Shown piece after piece: positions 1-10,153 of a stretch of 10,153 nucleotides of DNA (the first letter of the stretch is position 1; every line of letters starts with the position of its first letter). The translations under genes were made by a program, and so were the position numbers. The DNA is from Candidatus Krumholzibacteriia bacterium (GTDB lineage Bacteria; Krumholzibacteriota; Krumholzibacteriia; WVZY01), in the NCBI GenBank assembly GCA_036478295.1, contig JAZGDW010000206.1, positions 1 to 10,153 of the forward strand. Direction: 5' to 3'. Below the pieces are notes generated by a model. That model did no database searches. It saw only the letters and a list, made by a program, of their open reading frames with translations, and was not told the DNA's origin.

Positions 1-180
1 GATCACGCGGGCGGCGCCGACAAGAACCGTCTTTATAATGACACGCTTGAGCTCGAGCCGGGTGAATATGTTCTCTTCTATGAATCGGATGGATCCCACT
101 CATTCAATCGCTGGAATGCCAAGCCCCCCGCCGATCCCTGGAATTGGGGTGTGACGGTCAAACTGGCCAACAAGAACTAA
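1..180 (+). CDS. C-terminal fragment of a hypothetical protein (gene starts before the window)
   Basis: Frame 1 is open from base 1 to TAA at 178-180: DHAGGADKNRLYNDTLELEPGEYVLFYESDGSHSFNRWNAKPPADPWNWGVTVKLANKN*. It looks protein-like and ends 30 nt before the next co-directional gene. It is absent from the ORF track because it has no start codon in the window. Confidence 0.8.
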   Translation, partial: DHAGGADKNRLYNDTLELEPGEYVLFYESDGSHSFNRWNAKPPADPWNWGVTVKLANKN

Positions 181-210
181 CGCGCAAGGAGCGCGTCGAA
201 GGGGGAAGAA

Positions 211-1155
211 ATGCACAAGAAGGCACTGTGGCTGTCGCTGGCGTGTGTTTTTCTTGGCGCCGGCACGGTTTGGGGCGGTTCGGTCGACCTCGCCGTCGAC
301 AACGTCGGTTTGAGTATCGGGAACTCGAAACACTTCACCGGCCTGCGGATCAACTTTACCGATGAGCGCGTCGAGAGAATCAACGGAATCAATCTAACGC
401 TGTGGAAGCCCGGGGACAACCCGCGTGCGGAAATCCAGGGACTGCAGCTCGGTCTCGTCGGTATCGACGCCCGGGAGCTGCGAGGCATCATGCTCACCGG
501 CGTTGGTCTCGGGGCGGAGCGCGTTGCAGGTGTGGCCGTCGGCCTGGTTGGTATCGGCGGCGAGACCAGTGTGACGGGAATCGGTGTCGGGGGAGTCGGC
601 CTGGGCGGTGGTGATCTCAACGGGATCATGCTCGGCGGTGTCGGCCTGGGTGCAGACGACATCAACGGCATCGGCGTTGGCGGCCTCGGCGTCGGTGGCG
701 ACAACATGAAGGGACTTTTCGCCGGCGGGCTCGGCATCGGCGGTAATGATATGCAAGGTATCTTTGCCGGCGGGCTCGGCATCGGCGGTAATGATATGCA
801 AGGTACCTTTGCCGGCGGGCTCGGCGTCGGCGGTGCCGACATGAGGGGCCTGTTCTTCGGAGGTCTGGGTGTCGGTGGCGACGCGATTTCCGGTGTTGCA
901 GTGGGTGGGCTCGGCATTGGAGCCGAGGAGGCAAGAGGCATTGCCATCGGTGGACTGATGAGCCGGTTTGACTATGCCGAGGGGCTGGTCGCATCGGCGC
1001 ACAACCAGGTTCGCGAAGAGATGATCGGTGTGCAACTCGGCCTCTATAATTTTGCACGCGTCCTCAGTGGCGTGCAGCTTGGTCTCATCAACTACGCGGG
1101 CAACAATCCGAAGCTGCTTCGCGTGTTGCCTGGTATCAACTTTCACCTGAGATAA
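211..1155 (+). CDS. Secreted glycine-rich 15-aa repeat protein (putative beta-solenoid; resembles LA_2272-type surface-repeat proteins)
   Basis: ATG at 211 follows a purine-rich RBS (GAAGGGGGAAGAA). Signal peptide MHKKALWLSLACVFLGAGTVWG. About 12 clear repeats of the GIxxGGLGIGGxDxx type, then GVQLGLYN/GVQLGLINYA repeats and a C-terminal LPGINF. Confidence 0.8.
   Translation: MHKKALWLSLACVFLGAGTVWGGSVDLAVDNVGLSIGNSKHFTGLRINFTDERVERINGINLTLWKPGDNPRAEIQGLQLGLVGIDARELRGIMLTGVGLGAERVAGVAVGLVGIGGETSVTGIGVGGVGLGGGDLNGIMLGGVGLGADDINGIGVGGLGVGGDNMKGLFAGGLGIGGNDMQGIFAGGLGIGGNDMQGTFAGGLGVGGADMRGLFFGGLGVGGDAISGVAVGGLGIGAEEARGIAIGGLMSRFDYAEGLVASAHNQVREEMIGVQLGLYNFARVLSGVQLGLINYAGNNPKLLRVLPGINFHLR
721..834 (+). 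repeat. 45-bp coding tandem repeat, about 2.5 copies
   Basis: 721-765 and 766-810 (GCCGGCGGGCTCGGCATCGGCGGTAATGATATGCAAGGTA[T/C]CTTT) differ at 1 base; the partial third copy 811-834 has 1 mismatch. Confidence 0.95.
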
Positions 1156-1184
1156 GGCGGCGGAAAACGCCGCAGGAATGGTGT

Positions 1185-1214
1185 CCCGGGGTCAGACTGG
1201 CCCCGGGTTTTTTT
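1185..1214 (+). terminator. Rho-independent terminator between convergent genes
   Basis: Stem CCCGGGGTCA-gac-TGGCCCCGGG (1185-1207, one G-U pair) followed by T7 (1208-1214). A second small hairpin GCGGCG-gaaaa-CGCCGC lies at 1157-1173. Confidence 0.85.
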
Positions 1215-1225
1215 GCGAGCGGTGT

Positions 1226-2410
1226 TCAAAGATCATCACGGTGGCCACGCTTCGGCTCACCCCTCCATATCGACTTCGGGCCGAAACGGGCCTGGAGGTC
1301 ATCGAGCAGGTGGTCCACTCGTTCCTCTTGCTCGCGGGTCCGGTCGGGGAAAAGCTCCGGCTCCCCCTCGGCGGGCCGCACGAGCGTCGACACCGATACG
1401 CCAAGGAGCCTGAGCGGTCTGCCTTCGCGCCCCAGGCGACTCTCCAGGAGCCGGCGTGCCGCGCCGATAATCACCTGGGTGGCGGCGGTTGATGCGGGCA
1501 AGGTCACCGCCCGGGTGACGGTGGTGAAGTCGGGGTAGCGTGCCTTGATGTGAACGGTATGCGCGCGGAAACCCTCCTTGCGGAGGCGTTTTGCCACCCC
1601 GGTGGCAAGACCGTCCAGCCAGCGCCGCAGCTCGCCGTCGTCTTCGATGTCCTCCGCGAATGTCGTCTCGGCCCCAATGGATTTGGATTCCTCGCCCACG
1701 ACCACGGGGCGGTCGTCGATGCCGCGGGCGAGATCGCGCAGCCGGCGTGCGTACGACCCCACGATGGACTCGAGCCGCTCGGCGGGCATGGCGAGAAGGT
1801 CTCTTACCCGGTGCACGCCGTGGCTGGCCAGGTGCTTCTGCGAGACCTTGCCGACGCCCCACAGTTTGCCCACGGGCAGGCAGGCCAGACGCGCCTCGCC
1901 CTTTCCCGGCTGAATGACCACGAAACCGTCGGGCTTTTCGAGATCGCTGGCCAGCTTGGCCAGAAACTTGTTTTCCGCCACTCCGACCGACGCGGTCAAG
2001 CCTGTTTCATCCCGGATGCGCGCCTTTATCGTTGTTCCGATCTCGGATGCACGGCCGAAAAGACGACGGCTGCTGGTTACATCCAGAAACGCCTCGTCGA
2101 TGGAGATGGGTTCGACCAGAGGCGTGTATTCCCTGAAAATCGCGAACACCCTTTTGGAATAGGTCACATAGTGACCCATGCGTGGCGCAAGAAAAATTGC
2201 GTGCGGGCAGAGCTTTCTGGCCTGGTACGAGCTCATCGCGCTGTGCACGCCGTACTTTCGCACCGCGTACGAAGCAGCGGCCACCACGCCGCGCCCGTCC
2301 GGCGTGCCGCCTACGATCACCGGTTTGTCGCGGAGTTCGGGATTTTCGAGGATCTCGATGGACGCGTAGAAAGCGTCCATGTCGATATGCAAAATGGCAC
2401 GGTGCGACAT
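1226..2410 (-). CDS. dinB: DNA polymerase IV (Y-family, DinB)
   Basis: MSHRAILHIDMDAFYASIE, GRGVVAAASYAVRKYGVHSAM, VEPISIDEAFLD, NKFLAKLASDLEKPDG, HhH LWGVG, little-finger KSIGAETTF...RLLGV, and clamp-motif-like EPELF. Start placed at ATG 2410 because the family N-terminus begins there (394 aa); the ORF-track extension to 2560 is not protein-like. Confidence 0.95.
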   Translation of the reverse strand: MSHRAILHIDMDAFYASIEILENPELRDKPVIVGGTPDGRGVVAAASYAVRKYGVHSAMSSYQARKLCPHAIFLAPRMGHYVTYSKRVFAIFREYTPLVEPISIDEAFLDVTSSRRLFGRASEIGTTIKARIRDETGLTASVGVAENKFLAKLASDLEKPDGFVVIQPGKGEARLACLPVGKLWGVGKVSQKHLASHGVHRVRDLLAMPAERLESIVGSYARRLRDLARGIDDRPVVVGEESKSIGAETTFAEDIEDDGELRRWLDGLATGVAKRLRKEGFRAHTVHIKARYPDFTTVTRAVTLPASTAATQVIIGAARRLLESRLGREGRPLRLLGVSVSTLVRPAEGEPELFPDRTREQEERVDHLLDDLQARFGPKSIWRGEPKRGHRDDL

Positions 2411-2599: not shown

Positions 2600-3409
2600 G
2601 TGAAGTTGCAGTGGATCGGCGGCCCGACGTTTTTGCTCGAGCTGGGGAGTTTCAGGGTACTTGCCGACCCGGTTTTTGGCACCGGTGACGCGGCCTTCTA
2701 CCTGCGCACCACCCGCGAGAAGGCGTCGCGGGAAGAGAGTGACCGGGGCACCGGGCTACCGGTCACACGCCTTACGGAATTCCCCACCGTCAACATCGAC
2801 ACCCTCGACCTGGTGGTCGTAAGCCGCATGCGCGCGGACCACCTGGACCCCACGGCCATCGACCGTCTGGACAAGGACCTCACCATCATTCTGCCTGCCG
2901 GGCAGGCGAGCGCGTTGGAGGCGGACGGGTTCCATCGAACCCACCAGCTGGAATGGTGGCGGGAGGCGTTCGAAACTAAAGGGGAGGAGACGTTGACCGT
3001 CCTGGCGGTGCCCGTCGCCCGGCCGGAGGCGGGGAAACCCGCCGGTGACACCAACGGGTATATCATCGAGCACGCGGTGCGTGACAAAAAGTACACGATC
3101 TACTGGACCGGCGATACACTGTGGTTCCCGCAGGCGCGCGAGATAAAGGAGCGGTGCGGTGACGTGGATCTCATGATCGTTCACCTCGGCGCCGTGGGGG
3201 CAGGCGCCGACGACATGACGACGTTGAACGGCAAGGAGGCGATGCAGTTCGTCTTTATGTTTCAGCCGAAACGATTGCTGCCGATCAACCACAGCACGTT
3301 TTCACATTACACAGAATCCATCGACGACTTCAGGCAGCGTATCGATTTGACGATGTACGACCGCAGGCTCGTGCTGCTCGAAGAGGGAGAGACCTTCGAA
3401 CCAAAGTGA
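2600..3409 (+). CDS. Metallo-beta-lactamase-fold protein (UlaG/UPF0173-like) with a degenerate metal-binding motif
   Basis: GTG at 2600 after GAGGCGG. KLQWIGGPTFLLE...VLADP, DLVVVSRMRADHLD (position of HxHxDH), IYWTGDT, DLMIVHLG, LLPINHSTF. Confidence 0.85.
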   Translation: MKLQWIGGPTFLLELGSFRVLADPVFGTGDAAFYLRTTREKASREESDRGTGLPVTRLTEFPTVNIDTLDLVVVSRMRADHLDPTAIDRLDKDLTIILPAGQASALEADGFHRTHQLEWWREAFETKGEETLTVLAVPVARPEAGKPAGDTNGYIIEHAVRDKKYTIYWTGDTLWFPQAREIKERCGDVDLMIVHLGAVGAGADDMTTLNGKEAMQFVFMFQPKRLLPINHSTFSHYTESIDDFRQRIDLTMYDRRLVLLEEGETFEPK

Positions 3410-3417
3410 GGGGGATC

Positions 3418-4470
3418 ATGAAAGGCATCCGTATTCAGTTGACCGTCGTGACGATGCTCGTGTTGAGCATGGTGCTTACCGGTTGCGTAAGAAGAGAGAA
3501 CGATCAGTATACAAAAAAAGCCCCGAAAGAAAAACCGCTTGCCATCGTAATCCATGGCGGGGCGGGTACCATTCTCAAAGAGAACATGACACCGGAGCGC
3601 GAGAAGGCATACACGGACATCCTCACCGAGGTGCTCCAGGCCGGCTACGAGATTCTCGAGCAAGGCGGCAGCAGTCTCGACGCGGTGGAGGGCGCGATTC
3701 GCATCATGGAGGATTCCCCGCTGTTCAACGCAGGAAAGGGGGCGGTGTTCACCAACCAGGGCAAGAACGAGCTGGACGCGTCCATCATGGACGGTGCGAC
3801 GCTGCAGGCGGGCGCCGTCACCTCGGTAACGATCATCAAGAATCCGATCACGGCGGCACGGTTGGTCATGACCGATTCGAAGCACGTGCTGCTCGCCGGC
3901 AGGGGCGCCGAGCTCTTCGCGGGCGAACACGGTTTGGAGACGGTCGACCCCGACTATTTTTTTACCCAGCGTCGCTGGGATAGCCTGCTGAAAGCGAAGG
4001 AAAGGGACCGCTCGTCGAACGCCGCATCGCGTGAGGAAAAGTTCGGAACGGTCGGGGTGGTGGCGCTGGACAAGGACGGTAACCTCGCCGCCGGTACATC
4101 GACCGGCGGGCTCACCAACAAGCTCTACGGCCGCGTCGGTGACTCACCGATTATCGGCGCGGGATCCTACGCAAACAACAAGACCTGCGCGGTATCCGGT
4201 ACCGGCCAGGGTGAATATTTCATGCGGAATTTGGTGGCGTACGACGTATCGGTGTGGATGGAACACGAGGGCATGAGCGCGCAGCAGGCGGCGGATAAAG
4301 TGATCCAGGAGAAGCTCACCGAACTCGGCGGCACGGGCGGTGTCATCGTTCTGGACAAGGACGGCAACGTGGCGATGTCGTTCAACACCGAGGGCATGTA
4401 TCGGGGATTCATTGTCGGTGACGGTGTTCCCCACGTCTCGATATACGGAGAAGCGCCGCCCAGCGGATGA
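3418..4470 (+). CDS. iaaA: Isoaspartyl peptidase / plant-type L-asparaginase (Ntn hydrolase, T2 family) with a lipoprotein signal
   Basis: ATG at 3418 after GAGGGGG. IVIHGGAG, FNAGKG, ELDASIMDG, autocleavage/nucleophile FG|TVG, TSTGG, GRVGDSP, TGQGE. The N-terminus MKGIRIQLTVVTMLVLSMVLTGC ends in a lipobox (LTGC). Confidence 0.93.
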   Translation: MKGIRIQLTVVTMLVLSMVLTGCVRRENDQYTKKAPKEKPLAIVIHGGAGTILKENMTPEREKAYTDILTEVLQAGYEILEQGGSSLDAVEGAIRIMEDSPLFNAGKGAVFTNQGKNELDASIMDGATLQAGAVTSVTIIKNPITAARLVMTDSKHVLLAGRGAELFAGEHGLETVDPDYFFTQRRWDSLLKAKERDRSSNAASREEKFGTVGVVALDKDGNLAAGTSTGGLTNKLYGRVGDSPIIGAGSYANNKTCAVSGTGQGEYFMRNLVAYDVSVWMEHEGMSAQQAADKVIQEKLTELGGTGGVIVLDKDGNVAMSFNTEGMYRGFIVGDGVPHVSIYGEAPPSG

Positions 4471-4495
4471 TCTCGCAGCGTCCACTTATCTATGG

Positions 4496-4701
4496 AGCGG
4501 CGCCCCGTTGAATCGCTTCCTGGCCCACGCTCCACTTCGCTCGGCCACCCACGGCTAGCGCGGGTGGCAGCGAACGGGCGCCCGGCCGCGCGCAGCCTGC
4601 GAGCACGGACGGGCTGTTCGCTGACAGGACCCGCGCTAGCCGCGCGTGATCCTCGCTCGTTCCCGCATCGGGGCCCGTCACCGATTTAACGGGGCGCCGC
4701 T
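4496..4701. repeat. 206-bp palindromic MITE/REP-like intergenic element (copy 1)
   Basis: Terminal inverted repeats 4496-4515 (AGCGGCGCCCCGTTGAATCG) and 4682-4701 (CGATTTAACGGGGCGCCGCT), 19/20. Internal perfect 14-bp IR 4552-4565 / 4629-4642. Nested IR 4568-4577 / 4614-4623 (9/10, G-U). Confidence 0.8.
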
Positions 4702-4721
4702 TTAGAGAAGGGAAACACCCG

Positions 4722-5861
4722 ATGGCGGCCACGCACGATGTTGCGATAATCGGTCTCGGCGCCATGGGCAGCGCCGCCGCCTACCACCTGGCGCGGCGGG
4801 GACGCAAGGTCATCGCGTTCGATCTGTCCGTACCGCCGCACGCACTGGGTTCGACCCACGGCCAGTCGCGCATCATTCGCGAAGCCTATTTCGAGCACCC
4901 GCTCTACGTGCCGCTGGTGCGGCGGTCCTACGAATGCTGGCACCAGCTGCAGGCCGATGCGGGCAAGCCGCTCCTCAACCAGACGGGGGCCGTTCTTATC
5001 GGACCGGCGCAGGGCATGCTGGTGGGTGGGACGCGCCTCAGTGCCGACCGCTACGGCCTCGACTACGAAATGCTCACGGCGGATGAGGTTCGCCAGCGCT
5101 ACCCCGTGCTGCACCCGGCGGACGGGACGGTCGCGGTTTACGAGCCGCGTGCCGGCATCCTCTTTCCGGAGAAATGCGTGGAGGCTCACCTCGGGTTGGC
5201 ATCCCGGCACGGCGCCGAGCTTCATTTCGACGAAACGGTTACCGGATGGAAACCCAAGCGCAAAGGCGTAGAGATAACGACGGAGCGCGGGAAGTACGTC
5301 GCATCCCGGCTCGTGCTCACGCCCGGCGCCTGGATGAACCGCCTTTTGCCCGATCTCCAACTACCGCTCACCGTGGAGCGCCAGGTGATCTACTGGTTCG
5401 AGCCGATCGCAGGCCACGAAGCCTTCGAGCTGGGCAGGCTTCCCGTGTATGCATGGGAATACGAGGACGAAGCGCTGTTTTACGGATTTCCGAACCTGGG
5501 GGACGGGGTCAAGATCGCCGTGCACCATCAGGGAGTGGTCACCGACGTCGACTCCATCGATCGAACGGTGGACGAAACGGAAGTTGGAGCGATGCGGGCA
5601 CTCGTGAGTGGGTTCATCCCGGATCTCGCCGGCGCGCTCCTGCGCTCGGAAGTGTGCATGTACACCAACACACCGGACGAGCATTTTATCATCGATTTTC
5701 ATCCCGAGCTGCCCCAGGTACTGATCGTCAGTCCCTGTTCGGGGCACGGGTTCAAGTTCGCCGCGGTCATCGGCGAAATCACAGCGGACCTTCTCATCGA
5801 GGGCAAGACCGAGTTCGATCTGGCGCCGTTCCGGCTGGATCGGTTTAGCGAAAAGGAGTAA
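4722..5861 (+). CDS. solA: N-methyl-L-tryptophan oxidase / monomeric sarcosine oxidase family FAD-dependent oxidase
   Basis: Rossmann DVAIIGLGAMGSAAAYHLA, GSTHGQSRIIREAY, CMYTNTPDEHFIID (Cys at the covalent-FAD position of the MSOX/MTOX family), SPCSGHGFKF. RBS AGAAGGG upstream. Confidence 0.92.
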   Translation: MAATHDVAIIGLGAMGSAAAYHLARRGRKVIAFDLSVPPHALGSTHGQSRIIREAYFEHPLYVPLVRRSYECWHQLQADAGKPLLNQTGAVLIGPAQGMLVGGTRLSADRYGLDYEMLTADEVRQRYPVLHPADGTVAVYEPRAGILFPEKCVEAHLGLASRHGAELHFDETVTGWKPKRKGVEITTERGKYVASRLVLTPGAWMNRLLPDLQLPLTVERQVIYWFEPIAGHEAFELGRLPVYAWEYEDEALFYGFPNLGDGVKIAVHHQGVVTDVDSIDRTVDETEVGAMRALVSGFIPDLAGALLRSEVCMYTNTPDEHFIIDFHPELPQVLIVSPCSGHGFKFAAVIGEITADLLIEGKTEFDLAPFRLDRFSEKE

Positions 5862-5863
5862 GA

Positions 5864-7735
5864 ATGCAGAAACGTTCCGCAGTCGGCTTGCTGCTCTTTG
5901 CGACGAACGTGGCGACGAGATTCCGAAGGACGCTCACGCCGGTGACGCTCCGGTCGATCGTTTTGGCGATCGCAACGTTCCTGGTGACGACCGCGCTGCC
6001 GCCTGATGCAGCGCTCGCGCAGGATGATGAGCTCCTCACCGACTACGAGAAGTCGGGGTACAAGGCGACACCGCGCTACGAGGAGACTATCGACTACTGC
6101 AAACGTCTCGCCGGCGCTTCGCGGTGGCTGCGCTACACGACGTTTGGCACCAGTCCACAGGGCCGCGATCTGCCGCTTATCATCGTGGACAAGCACGAAA
6201 ATTTCACGCCGAAGCGCGTGCGCGGCAAGGGCAAGATCGTTCTGCTGATCCAGGCGGGGATTCACTCCGGCGAGATCGATGGCAAAGACGCCGGCTTCAT
6301 GCTGCTCCGTGACATCGCCGTGTCCCGGAAATACCCCGGCTTCCTCGATCACGTCGCGATCCTCTTTATTCCCATCTTCAGCGTGGACGGCCACGAGCGC
6401 TTTGGCCCCTACAACCGCATAAACCAGAACGGTCCCGAAGAAATGGGATGGCGGGTGACGGCGCAGAACCTCAATTTGAACCGGGATTATCTCAAGGTCG
6501 ACTCGCCGGAAATGCGCGCCTGGCTCGAGTTGTGGAACGAGTGGCGGCCGGATTTTTTTGTCGACTGCCACGTCACCGACGGTTCCGATTATCAGTACGT
6601 GGTGACCTACGGGCTGGAGGTCTACGGCGGTCTGACGACCGCGCTCTCCAACTGGACGAAGGATGTCTACATTAAAGATGTCGGCAAGAACATGGCGGTG
6701 TCGGGCTTTGACTTCTTTCCTTATGTAGGTTTGATAGAGCGGCCCGACCCGAGGGGCGGGATGCGAAGCTGGGTGGCATCGCCACGGTTCTCGACCGGCT
6801 ATACCGCCATTCATAACCGGCCCGGACTCCTGATCGAAACCCACATGCTCAAGGACTACAAGACACGGGTGACCGGTACCTACGAGCTGCTCAGGCACAC
6901 GGTGGATCTCCTGAACCGCGAGCACGCGGGGCTCAAGAAAGCCATCGAGCAGGCGGAGCGTTACACGGCCAGCAGCGAATTTCGCCGCAAGCCATTTGGC
7001 GTTAAGTACGAGCCCGATCCAGAGGGCGTCGACATCGATTTCAAAGGTATAAAGTTTACGGCGGGAAAGAGCGACCTTACCAACGGGACCTGGTTCAAAT
7101 TCAGCGGTGAGCCAGAGACCTTCCGCATCAAGTGGCTCAACAAGCAGAGGCCGACCGTCCTGGTCGATTTGCCGGAGGCCTACATCGTGCCGGTCGAATG
7201 GCAGGCCGTGATCGAACGGCTCGAGCTGCACGGCGTGGAGGTCAGGAGACTCAAGCGGCCCGTGACGCTGACCGTCGATTCGTACCGTTTCAAGAATCCA
7301 AAATGGAAACAGCAGCCGTTCGAGGGCCGCCACGAGCTCACGGTGGACGTCGAACCCATGCAGGAAGAACGCACCTACCCCGCGGGATCGGCCGTCATCG
7401 ATATGAACCAGCCCTTGTCGCAAGTGGCCGTGCACGTTCTCGAGCCAGGTGCGCCGGACTCCTACGTTCACTGGGGGTTCTTCGATACTATTTTCGAGCG
7501 CAAGGAATACGCGGAGTCGTATGTCATGGAGAAAATGGCGCGGGAGATGCTGGCGAACGACGCAGCGCTGCGTAGCGAGTTCGAAGCGAAGAAGGACGGG
7601 GACCCTGAGTTCGCGGCCGATCCGAGGGCGATTCTCGACTGGTTCTACCGGCGCACGCCCTACTGGGACGACCGTATCAACGTATACCCGGTCGGAAAGA
7701 TTTTCGAGCGCGACCGCGTGAACGCACTTCGCTGA
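5864..7735 (+). CDS. Secreted M14-family zinc carboxypeptidase
   Basis: AAGGAG at 5853-5858 before ATG 5864. Signal ending AALA-QDD; FGTSPQGRDL, GIHSGEIDG (HxxE), NLNLNRDY, FVDCHVTDG, LLIETHMLK. An alternative GTG start is possible at 5942. Confidence 0.9.
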   Translation: MQKRSAVGLLLFATNVATRFRRTLTPVTLRSIVLAIATFLVTTALPPDAALAQDDELLTDYEKSGYKATPRYEETIDYCKRLAGASRWLRYTTFGTSPQGRDLPLIIVDKHENFTPKRVRGKGKIVLLIQAGIHSGEIDGKDAGFMLLRDIAVSRKYPGFLDHVAILFIPIFSVDGHERFGPYNRINQNGPEEMGWRVTAQNLNLNRDYLKVDSPEMRAWLELWNEWRPDFFVDCHVTDGSDYQYVVTYGLEVYGGLTTALSNWTKDVYIKDVGKNMAVSGFDFFPYVGLIERPDPRGGMRSWVASPRFSTGYTAIHNRPGLLIETHMLKDYKTRVTGTYELLRHTVDLLNREHAGLKKAIEQAERYTASSEFRRKPFGVKYEPDPEGVDIDFKGIKFTAGKSDLTNGTWFKFSGEPETFRIKWLNKQRPTVLVDLPEAYIVPVEWQAVIERLELHGVEVRRLKRPVTLTVDSYRFKNPKWKQQPFEGRHELTVDVEPMQEERTYPAGSAVIDMNQPLSQVAVHVLEPGAPDSYVHWGFFDTIFERKEYAESYVMEKMAREMLANDAALRSEFEAKKDGDPEFAADPRAILDWFYRRTPYWDDRINVYPVGKIFERDRVNALR

Positions 7736-7977: not shown

Positions 7978-8550
7978 ATGCGTTTTCCCGGAATGCTTGC
8001 AGTTTGCGCCGCAGTGATCGCCCTACGGGCGACACCGGCACTTGCATTTCCCACCTTTTCGAGTCCGGTGCACGGGACGCTGGTGTTCCTGCACGTGTTC
8101 GGTGCCATCATTTTTCTCGGCAACCTGATCGTGAGCGCGATGTGGATGGCGAATGCCCGGCGAACGGCCAACCCTGAAGTCCTTTACTTCGCCTCACGAA
8201 TGGTGGCGCGCGCCGACCGGATATTCACGCTGCCCGGCATGGTGTTGATTCTGGTGCCCGGGTTGCTCGTGACAGGGCCCTTCGGCGGATTTCCCGGGGC
8301 GGCCTGGGCCGAGCTGGCGCTGGGCCTGTTCATTATCACTGCGGTCATATGGGGCGCTTTTCTCGTTCGCCTGCAACGAAGTATGATCGAGCTATCGCGC
8401 CAGGCGGTGGTGCAGAAAGTAGCGCTAGAGGAACGCTACTACGATGTTTTCAAACGGTGGATAATGTTTGGCGGGATCGCGACCCTGCTGCCCGTGATCG
8501 CACTGTTCCTGATGGTTTTCAAACCGCATCTGTGGGGGCCGGCGAAATGA
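7978..8550 (+). CDS. DUF2269-like integral membrane protein
   Basis: Strong RBS GAGGAGG at 7966-7972 and ATG at 7978. Four hydrophobic helices, with the motifs FLHVFGAIIFLG, RADRIFTLPG, RLQRSM, KRWIMFG, LFLMVFKP. A short signal-like N-terminal extension (ATPALA-F) is present. Confidence 0.8.
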   Translation: MRFPGMLAVCAAVIALRATPALAFPTFSSPVHGTLVFLHVFGAIIFLGNLIVSAMWMANARRTANPEVLYFASRMVARADRIFTLPGMVLILVPGLLVTGPFGGFPGAAWAELALGLFIITAVIWGAFLVRLQRSMIELSRQAVVQKVALEERYYDVFKRWIMFGGIATLLPVIALFLMVFKPHLWGPAK

Positions 8551-8555
8551 TTCGC

Positions 8556-8668
8556 CCGCCCGCTCGCGGTACCGGTGGCGGCAGGGTGACAGGGCACGCA
8601 GGGACGGTTGATCCGCCCGCTCGCGGTACCGGCGGCGGCGGGGTGACCAGCCACGCACACGGATGGTT
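8556..8668 (+). repeat. 57-bp intergenic tandem duplication (2 copies)
   Basis: Copies start at 8556 and 8613. The first 35 nt are 33/35 identical (CCGCCCGCTCGCGGTACCGG[T/C]GGCGGC[A/G]GGGTGAC), and similarity continues through CACGCA...GGA[C/T]GGTT. Confidence 0.9.
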
Positions 8669-8695
8669 CGCAAAACGTTGGATTGGAGGTGCATC

Positions 8696-9475
8696 GTGCT
8701 AAGACAAGTACTGCTTGTTATGTCGGTTTGTTGTGCTCTTCTGGTTCCGAAGCCTGGTGCCGCCGGGGAGGCCGTGCCGACCCAGGTCATGGTGCGTGCC
8801 ATCGCCAAGGACGCAAAGATTATCGGCACCAAGGTGGGCGGCGTTCGCGTGACCATTCGTGATGCGGCGAGCGGCAAGGTGCTGGCGCAAGGCATGGCGC
8901 AGGGCAAGACCGGCGACACCAAATTGATTATGGTCGAGCCGCACGCGCACGGCGCGTCGCTGTACGACACGCCGGGAGCCGCCGGTTACCTGGCCACCCT
9001 GATGCTCTCCGAACCCACCGTGGTCGAGGTGATCGCCGAGGGCCCACTGGGACATCCGCAGTCCACCCAGCGCGCCAGCAAGACGTTGCTGCTCCTCCCC
9101 GGCCGGGACGTTCTCGGTGACGGCGTGGTTCTCGAGATCCACGGCTTTACCGTGGAAATCCTCGAGCCCGCCGCTGCGGGCCGCTTGCGCCGCGGAGAGG
9201 AACTGACGGTCCGCGCCCGCGTTACCATGACCTGAGGCTGTCCTACCGAGCCCGGGGGGCTCTGGGATGCCGACAAGATGGACGTAATCGCCCGCCTCAT
9301 GCAGCGCGGCCGCGTCATGACCGAAGTACCGCTCGCGTTTTCAGGCGAACAAAGTATCTACTCGGGGGTTATAAAGGTGGAGCACTCGGGGCGTTCGGAG
9401 CTGCAGGTGCTGGCCATCCAGCCAGAGACGGCGAATTTCGGGATTATCAAACAAAGGCTCAAGGTTCGTAATTAA
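8696..9475 (+). CDS. Putative secreted selenoprotein, 259 aa, UxC motif (Sec180 encoded by TGA 9233-9235)
   Basis: GGAGGT RBS at 8685-8690, GTG at 8696, signal peptide MLRQVLLVMSVCCALLVPKPGAA. The frame reads ...VRARVTMT-TGA-GCPTEPGGLWDADKMDVIARL...KVRN-TAA(9473-9475), joining ORFs 8663..9235 and 9278..9475, which share a frame. A SECIS-like hairpin begins directly after the TGA. Confidence 0.82.
9236..9271 (+). promoter_or_regulatory. Putative bacterial SECIS element
   Basis: GGC-u-GUCCUA-cc-GAGCCC-[GGG]-GGGCUC-UGGGAU-GCC. Lower stem 9236-9245 / 9263-9271 (one bulged U, two G-U pairs), a CC bulge, a perfect 6-bp upper stem 9248-9253 / 9257-9262, and an all-G apical loop after an 18-nt spacer from the UGA. 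Confidence 0.72.
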
Positions 9476-10153
9476 GTTCGGATTTCGTTTCATCCTTTTG
9501 CTCGCTGCTGCGGCATTGGGGATTGCTCCCGTGGCGGAGGCTTCATGGGCCGGGGCCGGCTCACCCGCGGGCGTCGTCCAGGAAGCAGAGCACCGCGCCC
9601 CTGCCGGAGAGGTCCAGGCCGCCGAGCGAATCGCCCCTGCCGGGGAAAGTCTGCCCACGGAAGACCGCATCCGCATCGCCGAGGCGTTTCGCATTGCGGA
9701 TGAGCTGGGTGAAAAGGTCTGGCGCGGTTGGAGCGATGCGCCGCGGGCGCTGCTGCTCGTTACGCGCGACAGGGAATACCTCGTCCGCCATCCGTACCCC
9801 ACCGGCGACTTCACACGTGTGGGGTACGATTCGCTGCTTCGAAGCGATGTGTATACACGGGAACGCGTGTACGACCCGAAGCTCCTCGCGACCTTTCCCG
9901 CGGTCGCCGGCGTGCCCACGATCGTCATCGGCCAACCCCGAAACACCGATGCCAGCCATTCCACGCGCTGGGTGATGACACTCCTGCACGAACACTTTCA
10001 CCAGTGGCAGCTGTCGCAGCCGGGGTACTACGATGCGGTAGCTGGCCTTGGCCTCGCCCGTGGCGACACGACCGGCATGTGGATGCTGAACTACGACTTT
10101 CCCTACGACTCGCCGGAGGTGGCGGCCGCCTTCTCCCATCTGTGCAAGAGCGC
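9471..10153 (+). CDS. Secreted HExxH (zincin-like) putative metallopeptidase, 3' truncated; start codon uncertain (ATT 9471 or TTG 9498)
   Basis: Open frame to the window end: IKFGFRFILLLAAAALGIAPVAEA...DRIRIAEAFRIADELGEKVWRGWS...LLATFPAVAGVPTIVIGQP...WVMTLLHEHFHQWQ...GMWMLNYDFPY. It has a signal-like N-terminus and an HEHFH motif. It is missing from the ORF track because there is no stop codon in the window. Confidence 0.8.
   Translation, partial: MKFGFRFILLLAAAALGIAPVAEASWAGAGSPAGVVQEAEHRAPAGEVQAAERIAPAGESLPTEDRIRIAEAFRIADELGEKVWRGWSDAPRALLLVTRDREYLVRHPYPTGDFTRVGYDSLLRSDVYTRERVYDPKLLATFPAVAGVPTIVIGQPRNTDASHSTRWVMTLLHEHFHQWQLSQPGYYDAVAGLGLARGDTTGMWMLNYDFPYDSPEVAAAFSHLCKS
9576..9647 (+). repeat. 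36-bp degenerate coding duplication (VQEAEHRAPAGE / VQAAERIAPAGE)
   Basis: GTCCAGG...CGCCCCTGCCGG.GA recurs at 9576 and 9612. Confidence 0.75.

Follow-up and report, generated by a model that had tools for sequence, protein, structure and literature searches.

The window (the whole 10,153-nt stretch of DNA analysed here) carries a run of amino-acid- and peptide-processing genes (3406-7735), followed on the same strand by a reading frame that passes through an in-frame UGA, and then by a gene that is open at its 3′ end (Table 1). The list of open reading frames compiled with translation table 11 gives this frame as 8663..9235, ending at the UGA, and also holds a separate downstream ORF that begins at an ATG (9278..9475). 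Translated with TGA as U, the frame runs from a GTG at 8696 to a TAA at 9473-9475 and yields 259 residues, with U at residue 180 in the peptide RVTMT-U-GCPTEPGGLWDAD and 79 residues after it. An earlier note on this DNA had proposed a hidden selenoprotein here, on the grounds that the ORF caller stops at TGA 9233-9235, that the same frame stays open for 79 more sense codons, and that a TMT-U motif is followed by a Cys two residues after the UGA (U180, C182); all three observations hold.

We place the start at GTG 8696 and not at ATG 8663 because a GGAGG lies 6 nt upstream and because the database protein P0002 starts at the equivalent position. P0002 (179 residues, 97% identical) ends exactly at ...RVTMT, at the UGA, and is, to judge by this match, the same gene in a closely related strain, where a gene caller has truncated it at the UGA; the earlier note had expected standard annotation to split the gene in this way. 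Logan contigs from three public runs of one study, 95-99% alike, leave 9233-9235 unchanged, so that the TGA is genuine in the sequence data. The strain behind these contigs is about 97% identical to the window. Seven of the eight strain differences listed after the UGA fall at third codon positions of the read-through frame, as do 11 of the 14 that precede it within the gene. Together the contigs exclude an assembly error and show the downstream part to evolve as coding sequence. No promoter or terminator consensus turned up in a scan of 8450-9650, and an Rfam scan of 8600-9600 returned nothing meaningful.

Table 1. Coordinates of the candidate selenoprotein gene, its parts, neighbouring genes and two further genes of the same genome.
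Feature	Position	Strand	Remarks
Asparaginase_2 gene	3406-4470	same as selenoprotein gene	upstream of selenoprotein gene
DAO-family FAD oxidoreductase gene	4722-5861	same as selenoprotein gene	upstream of selenoprotein gene
M14 zinc carboxypeptidase domain protein gene	5864-7735	same as selenoprotein gene	upstream of selenoprotein gene
Shine-Dalgarno-like GGAGG	8685..8689	+	6 nt before GTG start; read from the sequence
Predicted complete selenoprotein gene	8696..9475	+	GTG start, 259 codons, U at codon 180, TAA stop; translated with TGA = U
Signal-peptide-like N-terminus (inferred)	8696..8767	+	about residues 1-24; basic residue, hydrophobic stretch, then G-A-A-G
Predicted N-terminal beta-sandwich domain	8774..9139	+	about residues 27-148; AlphaFold2 strands 27-148, pLDDT of block mostly 78-97
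Predicted C-terminal Ig-like beta-sandwich domain	9143..9472	+	residues 150-259; U-G-C-P in the loop after strand 169-178; AlphaFold2
Putative Sec codon UGA, residue 180	9233..9235	+	opens U-G-C-P motif; aligned with an invariant Cys in 23/23 homologues
Putative SECIS hairpin	9236..9271	+	MFE fold; same upper helix in the RNAalifold consensus of 27 TGA forms; fits bSECIS constraints
Lower helix of hairpin	9236-9238/9269-9271 and 9240-9245/9263-9268	+	MFE fold
Upper helix of hairpin, GAGCCC/GGGCUC	9248-9253/9257-9262	+	6 bp, begins 12 nt after UGA
Apical loop of hairpin, GGG	9254-9256	+	18 nt after UGA
Stop codon TAA	9473..9475	+	true stop; homologues end within a few residues of the same point
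Downstream gene	9498-10151 (3′ open)		starts 22 nt after TAA; no Pfam match; shared only with the congener
selD fragment L010	contig C118, bases 2-229	-	in-frame TGA, ...ACAG-U-ASKF
DUF1573 candidate selenoprotein gene L123	contig C87, ORF 880-1890	-	PF07610 at 67.9 bits; in-frame TGA, KVQPG-U-GCTVAQ

From a collection of 5.8 billion proteins a search drew 3557 candidates, of which 931 are homologues at E <= 0.001. The best 120 of the 931 are mostly about 260 residues in length, with a query coverage of 88-99%; Pfam domains are precomputed for none of these 120, and every source name shown is 'hypothetical protein'. In a 24-row alignment that includes the window protein, the position of the UGA is Cys in all 23 full-length homologues, with homology on both sides of it. 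Residues C180 (U in the window), G181, C182, P183, E185, P186, G188, W190 and D191 are invariant, and the family consensus TMxCGCPTEPGGLWD shows that the motif which the earlier note had given for Cys-containing relatives (M-M-C-G-C-P-x-x-P-G-G-x-W) was essentially right. A profile of the C-terminal domain retrieved 463 representatives (clusters at 50% identity) at E <= 0.001 from a library of 1.84 billion proteins. A search of the ESM Atlas with the Cys homologue P0013 found only unnamed clusters.

To count codons at the Sec position, we assembled 101 related loci, comprising the window, a congener, 80 loci from species-representative genomes and 19 metagenome loci. The 80 genome loci came from a protein-pattern scan that did not require TGA and are distributed over Acidobacteriota, Gemmatimonadota, Rhodothermota, Nitrospirota, Bacteroidota and others; one of them, the Cys-form locus L044, belongs to the cultured Roseithermus sacchariphilus. 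Six of the 80 escaped a first, strict regular expression, and a looser version scored all 101. The 19 metagenome stretches were found with a degenerate DNA pattern for U-G-C-P-T-E-P-G-G, and every one of them (19/19) translates in frame as a family member. The codon is TGA at 35 loci, TGC at 55 and TGT at 11. Among the species-representative loci 14 of 80 carry TGA, so that standard annotation would truncate about one member in six at the UGA, as happened to P0002. The TGA loci span lineages that are up to about 50% divergent, the protein sequence after the TGA is conserved in them, and the congener copy (74% identity) also has TGA. For a maximum-likelihood tree 88 rows were used (26 Sec, 62 Cys); the truncated congener was left out, as were the six loci that the strict expression had not captured, three partial rows and three identical duplicates. 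At least six changes between Sec and Cys are required on this tree, and well-supported branches make two of them unavoidable.

The earlier note had also described a SECIS-like hairpin that starts at the first base after the UGA and bears a G-rich loop 18 nt downstream, and a hairpin with this position and loop is found in the minimum-free-energy fold (MFE −23 kcal/mol for the 60 nt from the UGA). The consensus bSECIS model of Zhang and Gladyshev, as summarised in the legend to Fig. 2 of PMC13188914, has a loop of 3-9 nt with a G in its first two positions, an upper stem of 4-16 bp, 16-37 nt between the UGA and the loop, and an MFE of −7.5 kcal/mol or lower. The hairpin (3-nt loop GGG, 6 bp, 18 nt, −23 kcal/mol) lies within every one of the published constraints summarised in that legend, in agreement with its proposed SECIS-like nature. 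The fold by itself is unexceptional for such G+C-rich sequence (z = −0.99; 31 of 200 shuffles fold as well), and it is the comparison with relatives that gives the hairpin its significance.

Codon choice in the helix distinguishes TGA forms from Cys forms. In 23 distinct TGA forms the helix codons are nearly fixed (GAG 23/23, CCC 21/23, GGG for the second Gly 23/23, CTC for Leu 23/23), and 2-4 synonyms are in use for the Gly codon of the loop and for each of the four codons that precede the helix. The same helix codons are free in 60 distinct Cys forms (GAG 48, CCC 23, GGG 15, CTC 8). Among forms that all encode one and the same peptide, GCPTEPGGLW, 21/23 TGA forms vs 2/21 Cys forms have an intact helix. 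Across all 101 loci, the 6-bp helix with a GGN loop is intact in 23/26 distinct TGA forms vs 2/63 Cys forms (Fisher p = 6e-16, uncorrected for relatedness, the forms not being phylogenetically independent).

Two related TGA loci (L047 and L050) have CAGCCC/GGGCUG, a compensatory G:C to C:G exchange in the bottom pair that alters both partners at the cost of a Glu-to-Gln replacement. RNAalifold, applied to 27 TGA forms, found two-sided changes in 0 of the 11 predicted pairs, because the upper helix is invariant in this set and is also constrained by the peptide. With the helix invariant, structural support rests on the codon-choice contrasts and on the single compensatory pair of L047 and L050. 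One TGA form (L041) keeps only four of the six helix pairs and folds differently. Two Cys forms (L038 and L080/L081) have the full GAGCCC-GGN-GGGCTC helix typical of TGA forms, and could reflect either recent Sec-to-Cys replacement or pre-adapted sequence.

The hairpin lies in the codons of the most conserved peptide of the family (G-C-P-T-E-P-G-G-L-W-D), so that a single run of 36 nt encodes the putative active-site loop and the recoding signal alike. This makes the gene a clean natural case of joint constraint by protein and RNA structure. In a reading that we consider doubtful, the SECIS arose through synonymous changes alone in a conserved peptide motif that was already there, which would have let lineages switch between Cys and Sec repeatedly; the tree requires at least six such changes, and two Cys forms have the full helix.

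The genome assembly (316 contigs, 3.5 Mb, about 91% complete) was searched for the Sec machinery that the earlier note had named as a check. We found selA (476 bits) and selB (383 bits), both above cut-off, and a tRNA-Sec gene (selC) with anticodon TCA, also above cut-off. The selD gene is present as a fragment at a contig end that covers only the first 79 positions (80 bits, below the full-length cut-off). As this fragment has an in-frame TGA, SelD itself is a predicted selenoprotein in the host organism. The selA gene was also found in five of five other genomes with TGA forms and in four of five genomes with Cys forms. A second candidate, L123, is a DUF1573 selenoprotein of the catalogued 'UGC' type, and the genome would therefore hold two different beta-sandwich U-G-C proteins. 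Four database relatives of L123, each of 258-265 residues, extend over just the part that follows the TGA, and their annotation is probably truncated.

Taken on sequence evidence, UGA 9233-9235 almost certainly encodes selenocysteine, and 8696-9475 is very probably one gene whose UGA is decoded as Sec by the ordinary bacterial route. Sec-tRNA(Sec) would be delivered to the UGA by SelB, which in turn would be recruited by the SECIS hairpin immediately 3′ of the codon. The product would have 259 residues, with a signal-peptide-like N-terminus and two beta-sandwich domains.

A single base change could also have turned a TGC or TGT Cys codon into TGA in a gene that is now dead, leaving the downstream frame as a remnant, and decay does occur in this family, as is seen from the 5′ truncation of the congener copy and from two metagenome copies whose upstream part has lost the frame. 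A pseudogene is nevertheless very improbable: it would leave unexplained why the TGA occupies exactly the same codon at 35 of 101 loci with conserved protein sequence after it, why seven of eight downstream strain differences sit at third codon positions, why the helix is common to TGA forms and missing from all but 2 of 63 Cys forms, and why the genome has Sec machinery.

Bacteria are known in which UGA is reassigned to a standard residue, and we give an equally small chance to UGA being read through or reassigned here to Trp, Gly or Cys in place of Sec. As the earlier note had observed, UGA serves as a true stop in other genes of the window: TGA terminates five of the seven others checked, which argues that the code is not reassigned. 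The open frames of selA and selB have no internal stops, relatives always have Cys at the aligned position, the residue with which Sec is usually paired, and the SECIS-type helix goes with the TGA forms (2/63 Cys forms excepted). The two parts are hardly credible as separate genes, a 179-residue protein ending at the TGA and an independent small ORF such as ATG 9278..9475: gene callers do give this split, both in P0002 and in the ORF list, but each Cys relative is one protein of about 260 residues, both parts form one beta-sandwich domain, and 9236-9277, which encodes the most conserved peptide of the family, would be non-coding.

The AlphaFold2 model of the selenoprotein (mean pLDDT 85.9, pTM 0.76) has a low-confidence helix at residues 2-14 and is otherwise all-beta, with two beta-sandwich domains; no thioredoxin-like fold surrounds the Sec residue in this model. 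The homologues have comparable hydrophobic N-termini that end in A-Q, and export of the protein is inferred from its signal-peptide-like N-terminus. Both features agree with the earlier description of an exported, beta-rich protein without a thioredoxin fold. A wide VIA-align search matched residues 150-259 to Ig-, E-set- and Fn3-like structures (Z 9-12, best 12.2, many tied at 9-10). Together with a Foldseek search against the PDB, it returned generic Ig-like sandwiches only and no functional lead.

Pfam and NCBIfam scans of the window protein gave only sub-threshold chance hits. Table 1 of a 2026 review (PMC13188914) gives a domain identifier for each of 119 prokaryotic selenoprotein families or subfamilies. 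The scan covered those with a Pfam or NCBIfam model (some have only cd or PTHR identifiers), and none of these models matched the window protein. As it matches no Pfam or NCBIfam model, we place the family in none of the 119 catalogued families, and so answer, as far as that table goes, the earlier note's question of whether it was already listed. The text consulted of the deep-Sep and BSepDB papers makes no mention of such a family, which their supplementary tables could list, and a literature search with the family motif gave no relevant paper among the matches listed. The predicted decoding is entirely conventional; it is the family that is new to the catalogue of PMC13188914. It would add a widespread, non-thioredoxin-like family, exported as far as its N-terminus indicates, to the bacterial selenoproteome.

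The nearest catalogued likeness is to the DUF1573 (PF07610) 'UGC' selenoproteins, which are listed in Table 1 of PMC13188914. Both have U-G-C directly after a beta strand in a beta-sandwich, a signal-like N-terminus and Cys forms with C-G-C. PF07610 does not match the window protein at E <= 1 (hmmscan), however, and the window gene is not among the 22 matches to PF07610 in the genome at E <= 10. Profile-profile comparison (hhalign) of the window family with DUF1573 gave probabilities of 0.3% and 0.6% over 11 columns around C-G-C, with DUF1573 profiles that are thin (8 rows each). The window protein also differs from DUF1573 in having two domains and an extended invariant motif, C-G-C-P-T-E-P-G-G-x-W-D.

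In its genetic arrangement (an in-frame UGA, Cys homologues, a 3′ hairpin) the window gene resembles the known bacterial Sec/Cys pairs with a bSECIS. Most catalogued families are thioredoxin-like with UxxC or CxxU, whereas the window family is a predicted beta-sandwich with UxC. Two known proteins have Sec and Cys one residue apart, of which one has a thioredoxin fold and the other is a membrane transporter. The window protein, a soluble two-domain beta-sandwich in the predicted model, shares the spacing with them and matches the models of neither family.

The only invariant residues of the alignment that bear chemistry are the U/C-x-C pair, nearby acidic residues and a Trp. Sec usually replaces a catalytic Cys. 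C-X-C redox centres occur in Erv2 (C-G-C) and Mia40 (C-P-C), and a C-X-C copper site occurs in the SOD1 chaperone; the cysteines of a vicinal C-x-C can either bind Cu(I) or close into a disulfide, which is strained and rather oxidising and shuttles electrons. These three proteins have folds unrelated to that of the window protein, and the likeness is one of possible mechanism, with no homology claimed.

By analogy, U180 and C182, which lie two residues from each other in a second-domain loop, would form the working centre of the protein, either as a reversible redox selenenylsulfide or as a chelate of a thiophilic ligand. Our best guess for its role, to which we give about an even chance, is an extracytoplasmic thiol- or chalcogen-exchange centre of the oxidoreductase type. 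Binding of a soft metal or metalloid comes second, as a possibility perhaps half as probable, and the rest falls to some other role. The redox and metal guesses, both already put forward in the earlier note for a periplasmic protein, rest on the C-X-C chemistry and on the rule that Sec replaces catalytic Cys. The Sec position would mark the working residue and offers a defined starting point for experiments.

Two of the 463 representatives retrieved with the C-terminal domain profile, P0135 (680 aa) and P0153 (709 aa), consist of the whole family module fused to a beta-lactamase-fold serine-hydrolase domain (PF00144), which stands at the N-terminus in one and at the C-terminus in the other. 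The motif in both is C-S-C-P, not C-G-C-P. From these two natural fusions of opposite order one might read a new kind of extracytoplasmic chalcogen-redox module that partners periplasmic enzymes of the serine-hydrolase or peptidase type and not the Dsb/thioredoxin systems, a reading that we consider doubtful.

All-against-all clustering of the flanking ORFs of 95 loci revealed no neighbour shared across lineages, and Pfam searches of 53 flanking ORFs from 16 loci gave unrelated functions. The neighbours in the window, DUF2269 upstream and an unnamed protein downstream, recur only in the congener. The congener copy of the downstream gene (L023 1018-2019) encodes the residues H-E-H-F-H, which resemble an HExxH motif. 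At several unrelated loci the family gene has peptidase genes (M20, M16, Met-zincin) beside it, which may be coincidence. Two proteins are encoded near Cys-form loci only, a diheme cytochrome c whose domain is of the SoxA/TsdA type (at 27 loci) and a molybdoenzyme resembling sulfite oxidase (at 15 loci). Their genes lie 2.5-3.5 kb upstream on the opposite strand (L028-L078), a synteny confined to one clade; a Cys clade of 27 rows is labelled mostly Terriglobia or Acidobacteriota.

The congener locus (L023, in the same-genus genome G001) retains at 676-1003 only the last ~103 codons of the gene (the 74% identical part), with the TGA and most of the hairpin. This remnant directly follows the stop of DUF2269, the first ~155 codons are missing, and it is either a deletion remnant or an assembly artefact. 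Two metagenome TGA forms (L110 and L118) have stops in frame upstream of the motif and a C-terminal end that diverges (…LAMDRSLSTT…), and are probably frameshifted or decaying copies. The truncated congener and these two out-of-frame copies suggest that the gene is dispensable or decaying in some lineages.
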